From a phage, in assembly GCA_032986305.1 (NCBI GenBank), contig GCA_032986305.1_3672.1: a DNA stretch of 64,000 nucleotides; one strand, written 5' to 3'. Shown piece by piece: positions 1 to 6,282 of this stretch. The translations under genes were made by a program, and so were the position numbers. Numbering within the stretch: position 1 is the first letter of the stretch; each line of letters opens with the position of its first letter. The notes beneath the pieces are model-generated. The model was not told where the DNA came from. It saw nothing but the letters and a program-made list of their open reading frames with translations, and did not search any database.

Positions 1-1163
1 CTAAACTCTTCACCAAACTCTTTTACAATCTTCATCAGGTTCGGGTATGCCTTGATCAGCCGAGCAACAATCTTGTCACGCCCTTTACCGATAAGCAAGG
101 CATTTCCTAAGGCATTAGGTTTCATCATCGCCATAAAGACTGAGAATACAAAATCTCGGTTCTCGTCCTTGAAGTTTTCCCAAAGGAAATCGAGGAAGTT
201 TGCCACACAGCTAACAAGATCTTCGTCGGAGATACTTGCATTTTCCATCATATTACGAATAGCGATACAACCTTCAGATCCAAGAATCCACAAGATGTCT
301 GGCTGTTTAGGGCCTACGTATTCTTTGCAACCTCCTGCCATAATCCGACCGATTTCCGGTAAGTTGCGTTTCTTGGTGTGGTAAGTCCAGATCTCTACCG
401 CTGCAGTGTGACCAATAGCACCTTGCAGAAGAACACGGGCCATAGCGTCAGAAATAATACCGCTGTCAAAATCGTGCAAGATATCAGATGCAGCAACCCA
501 AGATCGCGGTGTGGCAAAAGATGGACAATTAATCTCAGCCATAGCCTCATAATTATCGATAGCTGATGGAACTCTTTTCAGATATCCAATTACAGAGGAG
601 TGCACCCCATTAAGGAATGCGTAGTCCTCAATAAACACCTCTGCATTACTTGTAACTTCTACAATGATAAAGCGGTTAGCCAGAGGGGCTTCAAGCGCCG
701 AAAGAACAGCACCATCTGTAGAACGGTTACCTGCAGCTACAAAAACAGAGCCCTTAGGGAATGCATAGGTGCCGCACTTGTGGTCGAGCATAATCTGCAT
801 TGCAACCTTTTGCAGATAGTTATCTGCATGAGTAAGCTCATCCAGAAAGATAATCCCGCTCCAGTCCGGATCTGCAGGCCAAAATTCTGGAATTGCAAAC
901 ACTGTACGTGTAGTTCCATCCGCTTCTACAGGGATAGGTAGCCCAGATAAGTCGGCAGGATCTTTATCCGACAGTCGCACGTCAACCAGGTTGTCATCTC
1001 GCTCACCGAACATATTATCGGCGATCTGCTTCATCACCTGGCTCTTCCCCACACCTATTGGTCCTAAAATCAGGACAGATCGGTTATGACGCTGGGCAAA
1101 CTGAATGATAGCTGGCAACTCACGGACAGTGATTTGACCACTTTCAAATACGTTTCTTGACAT
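1..1163 (-). CDS. MoxR-like AAA+ ATPase (AAA_5-type), partial: start at 1161-1163, 3' end runs off the window
   Basis: Hand translation of the minus strand from ATG 1163-1161 gives MSRNVFESGQITVRELPAIIQFAQRHNRSVLILGPIGVGKS (Walker A GPIGVGKS) and later IIFLDELTHAD (Walker B); no stop before position 1. Start overlaps the upstream stop (TAATG). Not in the ORF track because it has no in-window stop; plus ORFs 52-941 are its antisense shadows. Confidence 0.75.
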   Translation of the reverse strand, partial: MSRNVFESGQITVRELPAIIQFAQRHNRSVLILGPIGVGKSQVMKQIADNMFGERDDNLVDVRLSDKDPADLSGLPIPVEADGTTRTVFAIPEFWPADPDWSGIIFLDELTHADNYLQKVAMQIMLDHKCGTYAFPKGSVFVAAGNRSTDGAVLSALEAPLANRFIIVEVTSNAEVFIEDYAFLNGVHSSVIGYLKRVPSAIDNYEAMAEINCPSFATPRSWVAASDILHDFDSGIISDAMARVLLQGAIGHTAAVEIWTYHTKKRNLPEIGRIMAGGCKEYVGPKQPDILWILGSEGCIAIRNMMENASISDEDLVSCVANFLDFLWENFKDENRDFVFSVFMAMMKPNALGNALLIGKGRDKIVARLIKAYPNLMKIVKEFGEEF

Positions 1164-1468
1164 TAGTAAAAGTCCTCTACTTGTGTGTAAGTGTTTTCAA
1201 AGTTTTCCAAAACAGATGTCACATCGGATCTGTCAATATCGTACACAACTTCCCAGTTGTATGCAACCCTTTCTGCTGTCGCCTCTTCAGGACTTAGCCG
1301 CCTGCTGGGGTGAAAGAATGCTGGAGTGCACCTTCTTAGTTGTCTTCCGGTTTTCCCATAACAATATCTGTGGATAACTTTGTCAAAATTTAACTCTTTT
1401 TCTGCACAAAGTTCGTGTTTCTGGTATAACATGTTTATTACTCTTCTAAGCGGCATCCCTGCCCCCAT
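1163..1468 (-). CDS. hypothetical protein (101 aa)
   Basis: ORF in a compact co-oriented minus-strand array; its stop overlaps the ATPase start. Confidence 0.5.
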   Translation of the reverse strand: MGAGMPLRRVINMLYQKHELCAEKELNFDKVIHRYCYGKTGRQLRRCTPAFFHPSRRLSPEEATAERVAYNWEVVYDIDRSDVTSVLENFENTYTQVEDFY

Positions 1469-1471
1469 CTG

Positions 1472-1852
1472 CTAGAATGCAGTTCGAATCCAGACAAGGT
1501 TCTTATCTGCCCAATCATAGAGGCAAGTCATTGCGCTATTGAATTGCTCACACGGAGGATAATCTTCTTCCATCTGGCGCATAGCAGAGCCTTGCGGGTA
1601 AAGATCCCGTGCTGCAAGCCACGCATCGTAGTCATCCACGGTATCGAAGTAGTATACAACATCCTCCAGCTCAGGATCGAACTTTGAATTATCAGGATCC
1701 AGTTGTTCAGGGAACTTGGAGCGTAACTTGCCAGCCACAATGCTTGCCAACTCGCTAACATGCTTATTGTCCCACTCCACTAGTTTCCCGTCTTCAGTGA
1801 TGCGTCCTAACCACTGATCATGCAGGTCAACTGTTGTCTTCCACTGGGCCAT
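1472..1852 (-). CDS. hypothetical acidic protein (126 aa)
   Basis: ORF, D/E-rich, tightly packed with neighbours. Confidence 0.5.
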   Translation of the reverse strand: MAQWKTTVDLHDQWLGRITEDGKLVEWDNKHVSELASIVAGKLRSKFPEQLDPDNSKFDPELEDVVYYFDTVDDYDAWLAARDLYPQGSAMRQMEEDYPPCEQFNSAMTCLYDWADKNLVWIRTAF

Positions 1853-1854
1853 TA

Positions 1855-2112
1855 TCAGTTCACCTCTTCTTCTCGTTGTAGTTCAAGATACCCGTAGGTC
1901 TGGATATCTTGAAGGGTGTGGAACTCTCCATCTGCCGCTAAGGCACGAACAACTTGACACAAAACCTTATGAGGAACTTCATCCAGACCCAGATTCAGTG
2001 CAGGAAACACCTTATCTAAGTCAACAAAATAAACAAACTGTAGCTCACCAGCTTCAAAAGGTGTATCTTCAATAAACATCTTCTCGGCATTAGTCAAGAT
2101 CTGTACTTTCAT
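1855..2112 (-). CDS. hypothetical protein (85 aa)
   Basis: ORF, start abuts the stop of the upstream gene. Confidence 0.45.
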   Translation of the reverse strand: MKVQILTNAEKMFIEDTPFEAGELQFVYFVDLDKVFPALNLGLDEVPHKVLCQVVRALAADGEFHTLQDIQTYGYLELQREEEVN

Positions 2113-2468
2113 TATTCTACCTCCTCTTCTTTTTCTTCGGCATTAGTTTCAGTGCTACCCCACTCTGGAGTTTCCACCTCGATAGTAAACTCCCGCACTA
2201 CACGGTAATTACCCATGAAGCGCTCCACTTCGTCAAGGCTTACGGAGAGGCCATTGGCAACCAGGTCTGCAGCACCCTCTTCTACCAGGTAGTCCAGATT
2301 GGCTTCCAGAGCTTCAGGCTCAAACCCTGTCAATGCAATCAGATAACCTTCCCCTTCATCAGGGAGGACAATACAGCCCAACTGATTTTCTTTAAAAAGG
2401 CAGTGACCGTCATTATTGATTGGCTGTTCATTGCAGTAAATAGCTGCACGATAAGTAACTTTAGACAT
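2112..2468 (-). CDS. hypothetical highly acidic protein (118 aa)
   Basis: ORF with glutamate-rich C-terminus (EEKEEEVE). Confidence 0.5.
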   Translation of the reverse strand: MSKVTYRAAIYCNEQPINNDGHCLFKENQLGCIVLPDEGEGYLIALTGFEPEALEANLDYLVEEGAADLVANGLSVSLDEVERFMGNYRVVREFTIEVETPEWGSTETNAEEKEEEVE

Positions 2469-2480
2469 TGGTAGGCCTCC

Positions 2481-2759
2481 TTAGGCAACTGTCATTTTAC
2501 ATTCTTGAAATTTTAACACAAGACGGTGATTGTGTCTAGTGTCTAAAAAGATTTTTTCAACCATCAGGCACACGGTATAACCGTCCGTCTTGTTGACAAC
2601 AAAATCCCCAGGGTGAGGGAGAATGTCTCCGGGATTGGGGAAACATAACCCGCTCAAGAAGGCATCATAGGTGGTGGACTTAATGGATTTCCACACACTA
2701 TCTGCCTGAACACTCTCACCAACATAATATACACTACCACATGACTTCATCATAGTCAA
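2481..2759 (-). CDS. hypothetical protein (92 aa)
   Basis: ORF in the same array. Confidence 0.45.
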   Translation of the reverse strand: MTMMKSCGSVYYVGESVQADSVWKSIKSTTYDAFLSGLCFPNPGDILPHPGDFVVNKTDGYTVCLMVEKIFLDTRHNHRLVLKFQECKMTVA

Positions 2760-3655
2760 ATCTCCGCGTAAATTAAACTGGAATCAGTGTACTTCTTTAA
2801 CGGGTAAATATCCTGTCCATAGATGCCGTCATTAAACACCTCATCTACCCAAAGGCTACACTTATATCCCATCATCTCTAAAACACCCATCTCTTCTTCG
2901 GTAAACTTATCACCGCTCTTGCAAGATGTCAACACCTCATTCTGTACTCTTGATACCTCGAAGCGGTTATTGGCAATATCACTATTGGCAATCAAATACT
3001 CACCTAAAGGGTGTGCAGCATTAAAGATGCACAGTGGACGGTTGACGTAATAGTCTCCCGGTGTATAAAAATTGTTGAGATCCTTCACCAGAACATTCTT
3101 ATCAGTCACTTCATTTATAACATCATGCATATCACACATCTTTATATGTTTGAGGATTCCATCCCCCATCACAAAATAAAAACTTGCTGAGACACTCTCG
3201 GCATAGATCTTACTAGATCCGTTGTAGTTGTATTTTACGCGAATGCTTACAGGGGTTTTGCCTGTCGCGTTAGCCATCATCCAAAGGAACGGAAGTTCAA
3301 ACTTCTCCTCTGAGGAAACAAAAGGTGAAGTTGCCAGAGATCGGAAACCACCAGAGAAGTTGAAAGTTACAGAGCCGCTCCGGCGATATGATACCGCATA
3401 TTCTACTTTTATATCGACATAGCCGTTGGAGTAAGTGTGGCCTCCATTATCCAGATATGTCCACTTATCAGATCCGGATACCAGCCTACGCTCAATAACC
3501 TTCATTACTATAGGAATTAGCGGGTTGGTACAAACCGATTTTGAAGTAGCTTTATCATCCAAAGCCTCGTAAATTGCAGAAAGGATATCACCTGCTGAGA
3601 GATTGGTTGTGATATCTTGTTTCCACCGAGTGCTAAAGCTGTTAAGATTTGCCAT
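2756..3655 (-). CDS. hypothetical protein (299 aa)
   Basis: ORF track 2756..3697 trimmed to the Met (MANLNSF) that is preceded by AGGAG. Confidence 0.55.
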   Translation of the reverse strand: MANLNSFSTRWKQDITTNLSAGDILSAIYEALDDKATSKSVCTNPLIPIVMKVIERRLVSGSDKWTYLDNGGHTYSNGYVDIKVEYAVSYRRSGSVTFNFSGGFRSLATSPFVSSEEKFELPFLWMMANATGKTPVSIRVKYNYNGSSKIYAESVSASFYFVMGDGILKHIKMCDMHDVINEVTDKNVLVKDLNNFYTPGDYYVNRPLCIFNAAHPLGEYLIANSDIANNRFEVSRVQNEVLTSCKSGDKFTEEEMGVLEMMGYKCSLWVDEVFNDGIYGQDIYPLKKYTDSSLIYAEI

Positions 3656-3737
3656 GATTAAGTGCTCCTGTGTTCGTTTTCTTTCGAATGGGTGCACTAT
3701 ATCGTGGATTTATAGTAAAGTCAACACGTTTTTGAGG

Positions 3738-3766
3738 TTGACATCTGCCGAGGCACTTGATAAGAT
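3738..3766 (+). promoter_or_regulatory. sigma70-like promoter for the rightward early-like operon
   Basis: TTGACA (3738-3743), 17-nt spacer, TAAGAT (3761-3766); lies in the divergent intergenic region upstream of the 3798 start. Confidence 0.5.
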
Positions 3767-3797
3767 TTCTTCACCTACAGGGCACAAGAGACAACTT

Positions 3798-4787
3798 ATG
3801 AATCTTGAAAAATATTATACACCAGAAGAGTTAGAGCGCCTGCTCAAAAAATACAGACGCAAACAAAATAATGCACGGAAACGAGATATAGAGTTCAACC
3901 TGTCATGGGAAGAATACCTCCTATTTGGTAAAAAACTTTTAGGAGAGGGGGTATGCGACTATACCCTTATACCTTTCGACATGCACACAGATGAAAACGG
4001 GCTGGGGAATCCTTTCTACCCATCTCTGGAGCGGATAGATGATGAAGGTCCTTACGCAATTGATAACTGTTGTGTGGTAGGATTGAGGTGTAACTCTCTG
4101 AAAGACTGCCTGGTAGATAAAAAGACCGCAATCTTGATTAAAGACAAAACTGATCGAAAAATTGTCCAGCAGATGATGCTCCACCTGAGCGAAGAGCGCA
4201 TGGAGAAATTGAAAGGTGATTACACTTTTGAAGATTTCATCTTGCAATATGGGACGGAAGAGGATAAACTGGCACTCTTTGACGAAGAATGGGAGGAAGA
4301 TATGTCACCAATGCAGGATTTTAAAAACTTCATGGCTAACCGTGGAGCCAACAAGCACATTTCTGACATTGTAAACGAGCCTGCAGTAGAGGAGATTAAA
4401 GAAGTGGCGCAACAGGCTTACGAAGAGGAAAAAGAGCCTCAAGGGGACGAAGAAGAGCTCACAGAAGAGGTTCCTGCACTGCCTGACGATGTTGAGATTG
4501 CCAAAGCTTACACTTTCTATTGTCAGACGTTCTACGATGCAGGTATGAAAGTTGATCTGTCATTCAGTCAATTTAAGAGCACGTACATTCGAAAATGTTG
4601 TGCTTTAACTGGTGAGCGTCTCGGGGTCGGACTTAAACCACTATTAGTGACCGACTGGAATAAAGGTTTCACCAAGGGTAACTTTATGGTAGTATCTCCA
4701 ATTATGGAGAAAGCTATGACAGATCTTATGAAGACCACCCGCATGACAATGACCGAGTTGGCAGGTATTTTCAAGCACGTTAAATAA
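3798..4787 (+). CDS. protein with two tandem HNH_3-like modules separated by an acidic linker
   Basis: N-terminal ARKRDIEFNLSWEEY ... CDYTLIP ... PSLERIDDEGPYAIDNCCVV and C-terminal VDLSFSQF ... CALTGERL ... LVTDWNKGFTKGNFMVV repeat the same pattern. Start moved from 3603 to ATG 3798 (MNLEKYY), downstream of the promoter and clear of the leftward gene. Confidence 0.55.
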   Translation: MNLEKYYTPEELERLLKKYRRKQNNARKRDIEFNLSWEEYLLFGKKLLGEGVCDYTLIPFDMHTDENGLGNPFYPSLERIDDEGPYAIDNCCVVGLRCNSLKDCLVDKKTAILIKDKTDRKIVQQMMLHLSEERMEKLKGDYTFEDFILQYGTEEDKLALFDEEWEEDMSPMQDFKNFMANRGANKHISDIVNEPAVEEIKEVAQQAYEEEKEPQGDEEELTEEVPALPDDVEIAKAYTFYCQTFYDAGMKVDLSFSQFKSTYIRKCCALTGERLGVGLKPLLVTDWNKGFTKGNFMVVSPIMEKAMTDLMKTTRMTMTELAGIFKHVK

Positions 4788-4800
4788 TGACAGGGGGCCA

Positions 4801-6282
4801 ATGGCCCCTTCTGGAGTTTTAATGGATAGCAGAAGTTCAGAAATCATTGCCTCACAGAAAGATGATGCCCTGAGAATGTTGCAGGCTGCACGTATGTATC
4901 TCCTTGAAAAGCTGCCGTTTTATGGCACACTATTGTCAGGGTTGCAGTTCGTAGAAAACCACACATGGTGCTCCACCATGGCAACCGACCATAAACGCAT
5001 TTATTACAGTCCCGAGTTCATTATGGGGTTGGCTGATGAACGCAAGGCTATTCTTAAGGCTTCTCTAACTGACGAGCAGTTTGAGATGGCTGAGGTTTTC
5101 TATTCCCCAAAATCTGTGAAAGAGGTGGCCTTTCTTCTGTCGCATGAGGTGGGGCATATTATCTGTGATCACCTGGTCCGTGGTAAAAGCTTTGAGCCGG
5201 AACTGTTCAATATTGCTTGTGATCACGTTATCAACACAGGACTTGTGGTTGACTTTAGCAAACCTCCCTGTGTTTTCTTCCCGAAGGGGAAAAGCACTAC
5301 GTTCGTAAAAGGTAAGCCTTTTGGTTTCTTAGCCAGCTGCTACTGCGACATGAGGTTTCATGGATGGATTGCTGAGAACGTCTATGCAGTTCTTGATAAG
5401 CAAAGAGATCAGAATAACGGTAAAAATAAGAGCGGTAAAGGTGAGAACTCTCAAGGAGATAAGCGACAAACAGATGATCACATGAGTGGGAACGGTGGTA
5501 CCAGTGATGATCTTGGAAAGGCTATGGGGTATGATCAGCCACAACCTGTAATCAGCCAATCTGATAAAGATCAGGCCATGCAGGACTCTGGTGATATGCT
5601 GGAGGCAGCAATGCAAGCGTCCGGAGGCCGTTGCCCTGAGGCTGTGCGTGAGTTTGTCAAGAACAGGGGTAAGCCTGTAATCAACTATATAGACATCATT
5701 AAGCAACGCATGTTGTCTAAAAGAAAGGCCGAACTGACCTACAGAAAACCTGGTCGCCGATCTGGGTCTTTGACCAGCACAATGCGAAAAGTTGGGGCTA
5801 TAAACAAGAACCAGCACGTTATTGTTCCTGGTCGTAACCCGGAAAACACCATAGATATTGTGGTAGCTTTAGACGTTTCTGGCTCGATCTCTCAAAGAAC
5901 TTTAAAGAAAATGTTCAATGAAATCACCGGATTGTGCAATCTGTATAAAGAGTTTAAGGTTACAATGTTCTGTTGGTCAACTGAAGTCGGAGAGGTTAAA
6001 GTATATACTCGCGGCAACATAGACGAAATGATCAACTATGAGGTCCACTCAACATGGGGCACAACAGCTGCTTGCGTGTTCGAGTATCTGGATGCCAACA
6101 TACCGAATGCAAAAGATGTCATCGTCCTGACCGACCTATACTTTGAGCATAACTTTGAACAAAAGGCTGTTGACAACAAGTGGAAAAAGTACGATACTTT
6201 ATGGGTTCTCACTGAAGGGTATAATAAAAATTATATCCCGAGCTTTGGGAAAACTGTGGAATTAATCGAGTACGCTAAGTAA
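4801..6282 (+). CDS. metallopeptidase-like (HExxH) plus von Willebrand factor A domain protein, MoxR-partner type
   Basis: HEVGHIICDH motif in the N-terminal half, low-complexity linker, C-terminal IVVALDVSGSIS (DxSGS MIDAS motif). True start may be 4801 or the Met at about 4822. Confidence 0.75.
   Translation: MAPSGVLMDSRSSEIIASQKDDALRMLQAARMYLLEKLPFYGTLLSGLQFVENHTWCSTMATDHKRIYYSPEFIMGLADERKAILKASLTDEQFEMAEVFYSPKSVKEVAFLLSHEVGHIICDHLVRGKSFEPELFNIACDHVINTGLVVDFSKPPCVFFPKGKSTTFVKGKPFGFLASCYCDMRFHGWIAENVYAVLDKQRDQNNGKNKSGKGENSQGDKRQTDDHMSGNGGTSDDLGKAMGYDQPQPVISQSDKDQAMQDSGDMLEAAMQASGGRCPEAVREFVKNRGKPVINYIDIIKQRMLSKRKAELTYRKPGRRSGSLTSTMRKVGAINKNQHVIVPGRNPENTIDIVVALDVSGSISQRTLKKMFNEITGLCNLYKEFKVTMFCWSTEVGEVKVYTRGNIDEMINYEVHSTWGTTAACVFEYLDANIPNAKDVIVLTDLYFEHNFEQKAVDNKWKKYDTLWVLTEGYNKNYIPSFGKTVELIEYAK

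Follow-up and report, generated by a model that had tools for sequence, protein, structure and literature searches.

Among described pairs of a MoxR-class AAA+ ATPase and a von Willebrand factor A (vWA) domain protein, NorQ/NorD has been characterized by cryo-EM and mutagenesis. The vWA domain plugs the pore of the ATPase hexamer with a β-hairpin finger, and a linker within the partner is twisted as ATP is hydrolyzed. NorD proteins with mutations in the MIDAS (an adhesion site dependent on a metal ion) can still associate with NorQ, yet the client enzyme cNOR stays inactive, an outcome that suggests a part for the MIDAS in client binding. In coliphage N4, the corresponding products gp24 and gp25 are encoded by middle transcripts and rank among the 14 core genes of N4-like phages, with their function listed as unknown. 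The locus analyzed here occupies positions 1–6282 of a 64,000-nucleotide (nt) stretch of phage DNA (GenBank assembly GCA_032986305.1, contig GCA_032986305.1_3672.1; the whole stretch is termed the window below). It encodes a MoxR-like AAA+ ATPase and, on the opposite strand, a protein that combines zinc-peptidase motifs with a vWA domain. The two genes belong together as one conserved module. Our overall reading, which we hold with a probability of about 0.6, is that their products constitute one conserved machine, the rV5-group form of N4 gp24/gp25, that acts in the cytoplasm before the late phase of infection on a client other than a virion protein.

The locus lies in well-sampled sequence. 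Bases 1–6282 match 122 phage records at 90–99% identity, nearly all of them rV5-like coliphages of the genus Vequintavirus, and public genomes of this kind are 96–97% identical to the window, which is itself a Vequintavirus. The equivalent stretch of Escherichia phage BP9 already carries the labels 'MoxR-like ATPase' and 'metal-dependent peptidase'. The rV5 genome paper (2013) listed gene 4 as a 'MoxR - ATPase' of 394 residues and entered gene 12 as a conserved hypothetical protein in which it noted PF13203 DUF2201_N, and it reported proteins of sulfur oxidizers as the top BLAST matches of both gp4 and gp12. A preliminary description of this DNA had treated the pair as uncharted, which does not hold. 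The pair is annotated in near-identical genomes, is equivalent to the N4 gp24/gp25 core pair, and has a counterpart of its kind described in jumbo phages in 2021; recognition of a MoxR-like AAA+ motor with a zinc-peptidase/vWA partner in the window is therefore correct but already known. The sole new detail that the window supplies is that the rV5 group has separated the two genes.

Literature searches on DUF2201 with MoxR, on rV5 with MoxR, and on DUF2201 alone returned nothing relevant. The module is absent from the texts of a CRISPRi-ART paper and of a phage transposon-mutagenesis preprint, and a paper on an O177 Vequintavirus held nothing informative about it. As a separate observation on the database records, 16 unannotated GenBank entries named 'Campylobacter phage' (MG0656xx, 141–143 kb, host Campylobacter jejuni) are ~97% identical to window positions 1–6282; the Campylobacter host given for them seems to reflect mislabeling or contamination.

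Architecture of the ATPase and its putative peptidase-vWA partner

The ATPase gene runs leftward across the left edge of the window, with 387 of 394 residues present and the C-terminal 7 residues beyond it. Its features are as follows.

3..1163, minus strand: MoxR-like AAA+ ATPase (rV5 gene 4; N4 gp24 homologue), assigned from translation, homology, and fold
1041-1064, minus strand: Walker A motif GPIGVGKS, residues 34–41; G37, G39, K40, and S41 invariant in 52 sequences
822-854, minus strand: Walker B motif IIFLDELTHAD, residues 104–114; D108 and E109 invariant in 52 sequences
888..941, minus strand: predicted β-hairpin after helix 2 (residues 75–92); modeled strands 75–81 and 84–90 lie between β2 and the Walker B strand
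498..737, minus strand: candidate sensor 1 AAGNR (residues 143–147), candidate arginine finger LANRF (residues 161–165), and candidate sensor 2 ATPRSW (residues 217–222)

The protein is 99% identical to a 394-residue protein. Both Walker motifs noted in the preliminary description are present in this minus-strand open reading frame (ORF), and N146, R147, N163, R164, and R220 are likewise invariant in the alignment of 52 homologues. By analogy with other AAA+ enzymes, the three short motifs that contain these residues probably serve as sensor 1, arginine finger, and sensor 2. The further designation of the ATPase as 'AAA_5-type' could not be kept, as the window protein does not reach the Pfam threshold for that family. 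Because scans of Pfam, NCBIfam, and PDB sequences with the single sequence gave only P-loop-level matches to Clp/AAA families, we replaced the label with evidence from profiles and fold. N4 gp24 also falls below the Pfam cut-off for a MoxR-type AAA domain (AAA_5/AAA_3; 20.4 bits vs 22 bits).

That evidence has four parts. The ATPase matches a large set of proteins of ~360 residues at E~1e-45, and these carry weak precomputed matches to PF07726 AAA_3 and PF07728 AAA_5. A profile of the ATPase family run against the PDB returns the midasin AAA ring first (E 2.3e-10). The AlphaFold model, with a pLDDT (predicted local distance difference test score) of 86, finds NorQ or CbbQ2 in all 14 of its best Foldseek matches in the PDB (E 2e-8 to 4e-7). 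As the fourth part, the predicted structure contains, besides an α/β core and a lid domain, a helix-2 hairpin at residues 75–90 and a short hairpin at residues 129–134 ahead of the sensor-1 strand. A helix-2 insert and a pre-sensor-1 hairpin are the marks of the MoxR/midasin/dynein clade. The model also shows an additional C-terminal helical region of ~110 residues. Transitive homology, the midasin profile match, and the modeled fold together indicate a divergent MoxR-class protein that lies outside the curated AAA_5 model.

Directly upstream of the ATPase gene, a small ORF (1163-1468; rV5 gene 5) ends in a stop codon shared in part with the ATPase start (TAATG). The PHROG to which it is assigned is labeled 'ATPase', yet the product of ~90–100 residues has no P-loop match.

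The partner gene lies on the other strand, with the following features.

4822..6282, plus strand: zincin-like metallopeptidase/vWA (MIDAS) partner of 486 residues (rV5 gene 12; N4 gp25 homologue)
5143..5235, plus strand: predicted zinc site, HEVGHIICDH (residues 108–117, nt 5143-5172) with NIACDHVIN; H108, E109, H112, H117, A132, and D134 invariant
5737..5766, plus strand: Y-x-R-P-x-R-R motif (TYRKPGRRSG) before the vWA domain; R312 and R313 nearly invariant in phage and bacterial homologues
5872..6135, plus strand: complete MIDAS, DVSGS (residues 351–355, nt 5872-5886) with T414 in STWGTT and D438 in VLTD

Translation likely starts at the ATG at 4822: a GGAG lies 6 nt upstream of it, and the product has the 486 residues found in relatives; the ATG at 4801 is less likely. 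Both halves of the protein score above the Pfam gathering thresholds, in agreement with what the preliminary description had anticipated for this protein: PF13203 DUF2201_N at 98.5 bits (E 6.5e-28, threshold 23.2 bits) and PF09967 DUF2201 (VWA-like) at 43.7 bits (E 3.6e-11, threshold 26.4 bits) over residues 353–488 of the 493-residue ORF. The HEVGHIICDH and DVSGS motifs that it had reported were both located in this plus-strand ORF. In an alignment of 48 homologues that extends down to ~20% identity, the invariant columns are H108, E109, H112, H117, A132, D134, D351, S353, G354, S355, G413, T414, and D438. These columns make up the predicted zinc site and a complete DxSxS-T-D MIDAS. The Pfam scores and the invariant residues show that the motifs are no chance occurrences, and the catalytic motifs of both proteins are intact.

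The AlphaFold model of the partner (pLDDT 82) comprises a helical N-terminal domain that contains the HExxH helix, a disordered Gly/Asp/Lys-rich linker (residues 201–228), and a compact vWA domain. The C-terminal domain is a vWA domain with the metal-site residues of a MIDAS on a Rossmann-like fold. Foldseek matches of this domain include NorD-VWA, Rea1-MIDAS, and BchD, with NorD-VWA, solved in complex with NorQ, second best and the longest alignment at 228 columns, a result that is suggestive, but no more, of a pore-entering finger like that of NorD. The partner profile also aligns the DxSGS strand with the integrin I-domain MIDAS. For the N-terminal domain, profile matches are weak: selecase MJ1213 aligns over its HExxH helix at E 0.009, and the M48 peptidases BepA/HtpX score E 0.07–0.5; a single-sequence search of the PDB with the partner gave no match. 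Since this domain has no convincing solved relative, the term 'peptidase' derives from the Pfam name and the invariant HExxH-H-D residues, and peptidase activity is a putative attribute.

The core of the Y-x-R-P-x-R-R motif (nt 5740-5760, residues 307–313) precedes the first vWA strand by ~30 residues. A pore-binding element and a self-cleavage site are both candidate roles for it.

Public annotations of the partner are diverse. We considered and rejected four labels from public records and PHROG 1314 ('HNH endonuclease', 'anti-sigma factor', 'DNA repair ATPase', and 'tail protein'), as nothing in the sequence fits them. The protein also appears in public records as an 'IgG-like domain protein', and PHROG 1314 as a family bears the name 'HNH endonuclease'; not one of these names suits DUF2201_N plus vWA. 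The reference rV5 record splits the gene into gp12 (441 residues) and gp13 (81 residues). Because the window and most relatives carry one intact ORF of 486 residues, the rV5 reference probably contains a frameshift or a sequencing error.

Genomic coupling of the two genes

Evidence that the ATPase and its partner form one module comes from their arrangement in other lineages. Viral loci were gathered with the ATPase alignment from IMG/VR and metagenomes, yielding 80 contigs. A DUF2201 gene is present in 70 of these, and in 68 of the 70 it lies directly downstream of the ATPase gene on the same strand; the other two are rV5-group loci in which the pair is split. Nine of the 10 contigs without a DUF2201 match end at or just past the ATPase gene, and the tenth (L029) has a 359-residue ORF after the ATPase gene with no profile match. 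Because 79 similar loci from IMG/VR and metagenomes form one aquatic clade, they were counted as a single lineage. The same ATPase-then-partner layout recurs independently elsewhere, in locus L007 (36% identity), in coliphage N4 gp24-gp25, in several cultured phages (judged by coordinates), and in Sulfurivermis.

The bacterial loci, from sulfur-oxidizing proteobacteria, are equally regular. The ATPase gene is upstream on the same strand in all 78 that could be tested, within 400 nt in 67 of them, with a gap of ~0.4–2 kb in 10, and as a single fused ORF in one. In the fused locus, from a Nitrosomonadales metagenome-assembled genome (L154, 4981-7248), one open frame matches both the ATPase and the DUF2201 profiles; this could be a natural fusion or an assembly artifact. 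The two genes are apart only in the rV5 group (the window and two further loci, L005 and L006), where they lie on opposite strands on either side of divergent promoters, 3.6 kb from each other in the window.

The distributions of the two genes also agree. Across 50,697 phage genomes, counts by genus for the ATPase and the partner nearly coincide, for example 214 and 211 in Escherichia, 102 and 104 in Pseudomonas, 26 and 26 in Pectobacterium, and 17 and 17 in Cronobacter, and the module as a whole is present in roughly 670–790 of these genomes (about 1.3–1.5%). Divergence of the ATPase runs parallel to that of the partner (Spearman 0.76 across 142 loci, which are not independent). The pairing of the ATPase with the vWA protein that had been proposed from the window sequence is thus borne out by gene adjacency in other lineages, matching genus distributions, and parallel divergence, and the genomic coupling is obligate.

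No third gene common to all lineages was found in a search for one. In the aquatic clade the neighbors include a 5'-3' exonuclease and thymidylate synthase, and in N4 they include dCTP deaminase and rIIA. Among the bacterial loci, a third gene of ~374 residues follows the pair on the same strand in 49 of 81 (L086-L165 and L002), ~1.4 kb downstream of the point where the DUF2201 gene starts. It has no Pfam or NCBIfam match and could encode a client or a cofactor. A thioredoxin-like ORF (~124 residues) occurs in the flanks of 25 of the 81 bacterial loci and lies upstream of the pair in Sulfurivermis. In phage PA5oct (L166/L167, 234078-239264), the ATPase and partner genes are separated by an insertion of three small genes plus a putative homing endonuclease.

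These neighborhoods bear on one alternative explanation, in which the pair is a chaperone for metal insertion or enzyme activation that works without proteolysis on a phage enzyme of nucleotide metabolism or replication, the HExxH motif being a metal-handling site. Models for such a function exist in NorQD (Fe into NOR), CbbQO (Rubisco reactivation), and CobST, and in structure the ATPase lies nearest to NorQ and CbbQ. Genes for dCTP deaminase, thymidylate synthase, and an exonuclease lie beside the pair in N4 and the aquatic phages, which would suit this function, as would the ferrochelatase and thioredoxin genes near the pair in Sulfurivermis and the recurrent thioredoxin-like ORF in bacteria. 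However, no enzyme gene is constant as a neighbor across lineages, and in rV5-type phages the pair is away from the nucleotide-metabolism genes. In addition, the general-base Glu of HExxH is invariant in 48 of 48 homologues, as expected for hydrolysis and not for metal delivery. We consider this explanation very unlikely.

Promoter context, with proposed timing and function

The two genes of the window flank a divergent promoter pair, and the first gene of the rightward unit stands between that pair and the partner gene.

3696..3766, both strands: back-to-back sigma-70-type promoters for two divergent units
3798..4787, plus strand: Srd-like anti-sigma factor homologue (rV5 gene 11), with PHROG matches to the Srd anti-sigma factor and sigma-70 decoy families

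The plus-strand promoter reads TTGACA-17-(TG)TAAGAT (3738-3766) and the minus-strand promoter TTGACT-17-TATAGT (3724-3696). Both agree with the promoters P011 and P010 predicted at the equivalent place in the rV5 paper, in keeping with the divergent early-type units of the preliminary description. Promoter-like sites in the whole 9-kb region are no more common than in shuffled sequence (21 vs 15.6 +/- 4.0). That description also had the leftward operon end with the ATPase gene, which needs correction. Since rV5 gene 3 follows and precedes the terminator t003 that the rV5 paper predicts after gene 3, the ATPase gene is penultimate in the leftward operon. Leftward transcription may run on into genes for a cell-wall hydrolase, rIIA, and rIIB. 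As both genes are read from sigma-70 promoters in a divergent early region, the activity of the pair would fall before the late phase and in the cytoplasm. Further points for this timing are the Srd-like gene immediately upstream of the partner, the middle transcription of N4 gp24/25, the exonuclease and thymidylate synthase neighbors in the aquatic clade, the dCTP deaminase and rIIA neighbors in N4, and the missing 'MS evidence' label of rV5 gp4 and gp12.

Within this setting, a mechanism can be proposed for the pair. The ATPase presumably forms a hexameric ring, and the partner would be an adaptor-enzyme in which a zincin-type N-terminal domain is joined through a disordered linker to a compact vWA domain, the MIDAS of which is complete. 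On the model of NorQ/NorD, CbbQ/CbbO, and midasin, this vWA domain would dock on the ATPase ring, and its MIDAS metal would hold an acidic residue or a peptide of the client. ATP hydrolysis would then pull or twist the partner and thereby remodel the client, which the attached peptidase would subsequently cut; cleavage of the captured client is proposed because the catalytic Glu is invariant. The client itself may be a host or a phage protein that is processed or removed during takeover or replication.

Several observations weigh against an early, non-virion MoxR-peptidase machine. The window ATPase has no Pfam AAA_5 or AAA_3 match at E <= 0.01, only weak P-loop matches, and it fails every NCBIfam MoxR-type model when searched directly. 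For the N-terminal domain of the partner there is no convincing match to a solved structure, and no peptidase is among the top PDB fold matches. The literature gave no experiment on any member of either protein family. Because the surroundings of the bacterial homologues look like housekeeping ones, the ancestral client may have had no tie to infection. Finally, the ATPase homologue of PA5oct, EST35_0335, is flagged ESI-MS/MS (electrospray ionization tandem mass spectrometry) in virion preparations, which speaks for a degree of particle association; the partner is unflagged there, and the list of 93 proteins includes 'virion-unrelated enzymes'.

The PA5oct homologue (E 3e-42 to the window ATPase) also counts in favor of a second alternative, in which the pair is a virion-assembly chaperone plus protease that folds or assembles head or tail proteins and trims them. 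Iyer et al. (2021) proposed such a role for T4-related jumbo phages that have the same architecture, with a precedent in p618/p892 of Acidianus two-tailed virus. Deletion of an island in 0305phi8-36 that contains a MoxR-like orf66 and the chaperonin-like orf063 leads to a growth defect, which could also be understood in these terms. The composition of the PA5oct list and the unflagged partner lessen the force of the PA5oct evidence, and the location of the window genes argues in the other direction, behind sigma-70-type promoters, with Srd and rII genes as neighbors and the morphogenesis block far away. Neither gene has the late-promoter motif reported in the rV5 paper for genes 27-66, and N4 gp24/25 are middle genes. 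Neither gp4 nor gp12 carries the 'MS evidence' label that marks virion proteins in the rV5 gene table, and bacteria, which have no virions, retain the same pair. An assembly role is accordingly judged unlikely.

The same early-type location could instead suggest host takeover or anti-defense. Here the MIDAS adaptor would capture a conserved host protein (such as a defense, transcription, or nucleoid factor), the motor would extract it, and the peptidase would destroy it. The genes lie among small acidic proteins, near the Srd-like anti-sigma factor homologue and rIIA/rIIB, rIIA is nearby in N4 too, and the invariant catalytic Glu fits a destructive step. However, neither protein resembles any PADLOC defense family or known counter-defense family: against the PADLOC models the ATPase gave P-loop-level noise only (E >= 7.5e-4 over ~30–47 residues) and the partner had no match. 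The module is moreover a core component in phages of very different hosts and occurs in free-living bacteria, a distribution unlike that of anti-defense genes, which tend to be patchy and fast-evolving. This explanation overlaps the preferred one, a pre-late machine with a non-virion client, and differs only in naming a host client; in that specific form it is distinctly unlikely.

A bolder form of the preferred reading can be stated for consideration, although it is doubtful and offered tentatively. Under it, gp4/gp12 and N4 gp24/gp25 would be a self-contained ATP-dependent protease, a AAA+ motor and a MIDAS-guided zincin assembled in trans, and N4-like podoviruses, rV5-like myoviruses, and jumbo phages would use it in early or mid-infection, either for the removal of a single, highly conserved host protein or for the processing of a phage factor in replication or transcription. 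If true, such a protease would be a general and so far unrecognized step of the lytic program, and the split across divergent promoters in the rV5 group would let the subunits be dosed separately (about 6:1). Once the target of the module is identified, this widespread phage gene pair, like its bacterial counterparts, would have a function, and the known MoxR-vWA chaperones would gain a variant coupled to a protease.

The remaining features of the locus form its context. The Srd-like gene opens the rightward unit directly upstream of the partner gene and lies outside the module; the rV5 paper regards gp11 as a probable Srd homologue. Its first ~110 residues also match PHROGs named HNH endonuclease and endonuclease VII, and its long acidic C-terminal part has no family match. 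Most of the small proteins around the pair are acidic, as had been noted from the sequence, with isoelectric points of 4.0–4.7. A GC-rich hairpin, GGGGGCC-AAU-GGCCCC (4793-4808; -16.1 kcal/mol for a 43-nt stretch), lies past the stop codon of the Srd-like gene and ahead of the partner's ribosome-binding site. It resembles rV5 terminator stems and could reduce read-through into the partner gene. This hairpin is, however, not clearly better than shuffled sequences (z -1.8), and for that reason an attenuator is not claimed.

Relationship to known MoxR-vWA systems

Set against described pairs, the window adds no new kind of system. The virus-encoded pair p618 (MoxR) and p892 (vWA) of Acidianus two-tailed virus, likened here by description, has experimental evidence of interaction. 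It differs from the phage pair in that it has no peptidase domain, belongs to an archaeal virus, and acts in extracellular tail growth. NorQ/NorD and CbbQ/CbbO, of the MoxR 'CGN' group, share with the phage pair a full MIDAS and the genetic coupling of an ATPase with a vWA protein, although their sequence identity to the phage proteins is only about 16–21%. The phage pair is set apart by the extra ~110-residue helical C terminus of its ATPase and by a zincin in place of the N-terminal domains of NorD and CbbO, and metal insertion is not indicated for it.

Closer relatives share both protein families. The bacterial AAA_5 and DUF2201 operons, such as those of Sulfurivermis, Sedimenticola, Thiohalophilus, and Sulfuricella, have the same two families in the same order, but they are chromosomal, and the ~374-residue third gene follows the pair in 49 of the 81 bacterial loci. 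The MoxR and metallopeptidase-vWA 'chaperone-cochaperone' pair of jumbo phage group 2.2 (Iyer et al. 2021, Viruses 13:63) has the same two-protein architecture, and jumbo phages of 286–381 kb are among the tblastn matches of both window proteins. A virion-assembly role was proposed for that pair, whereas the copy of the rV5 group is located in a region of early type, and particle association finds no support in the rV5 virion proteome.

The closest described counterpart is N4 gp24/gp25 (AAA ATPase/vWFA), the Schitoviridae core pair. N4 gp24 matches the window ATPase in BLASTP at E 3e-28 with 27% identity over 355 residues, and the hhalign probability is 99.9%; N4 gp25 matches the window partner in tblastn at E 4e-10 over 84% of the query and has the same two Pfam domains. 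The two pairs share the same motifs, and both would be expressed before the late genes. The N4 proteins are shorter, at 352 and 380 residues compared with 394 and 486 for the rV5-type proteins, and the N4 genes are adjacent and co-directional, whereas those of the window are split by divergent promoters.

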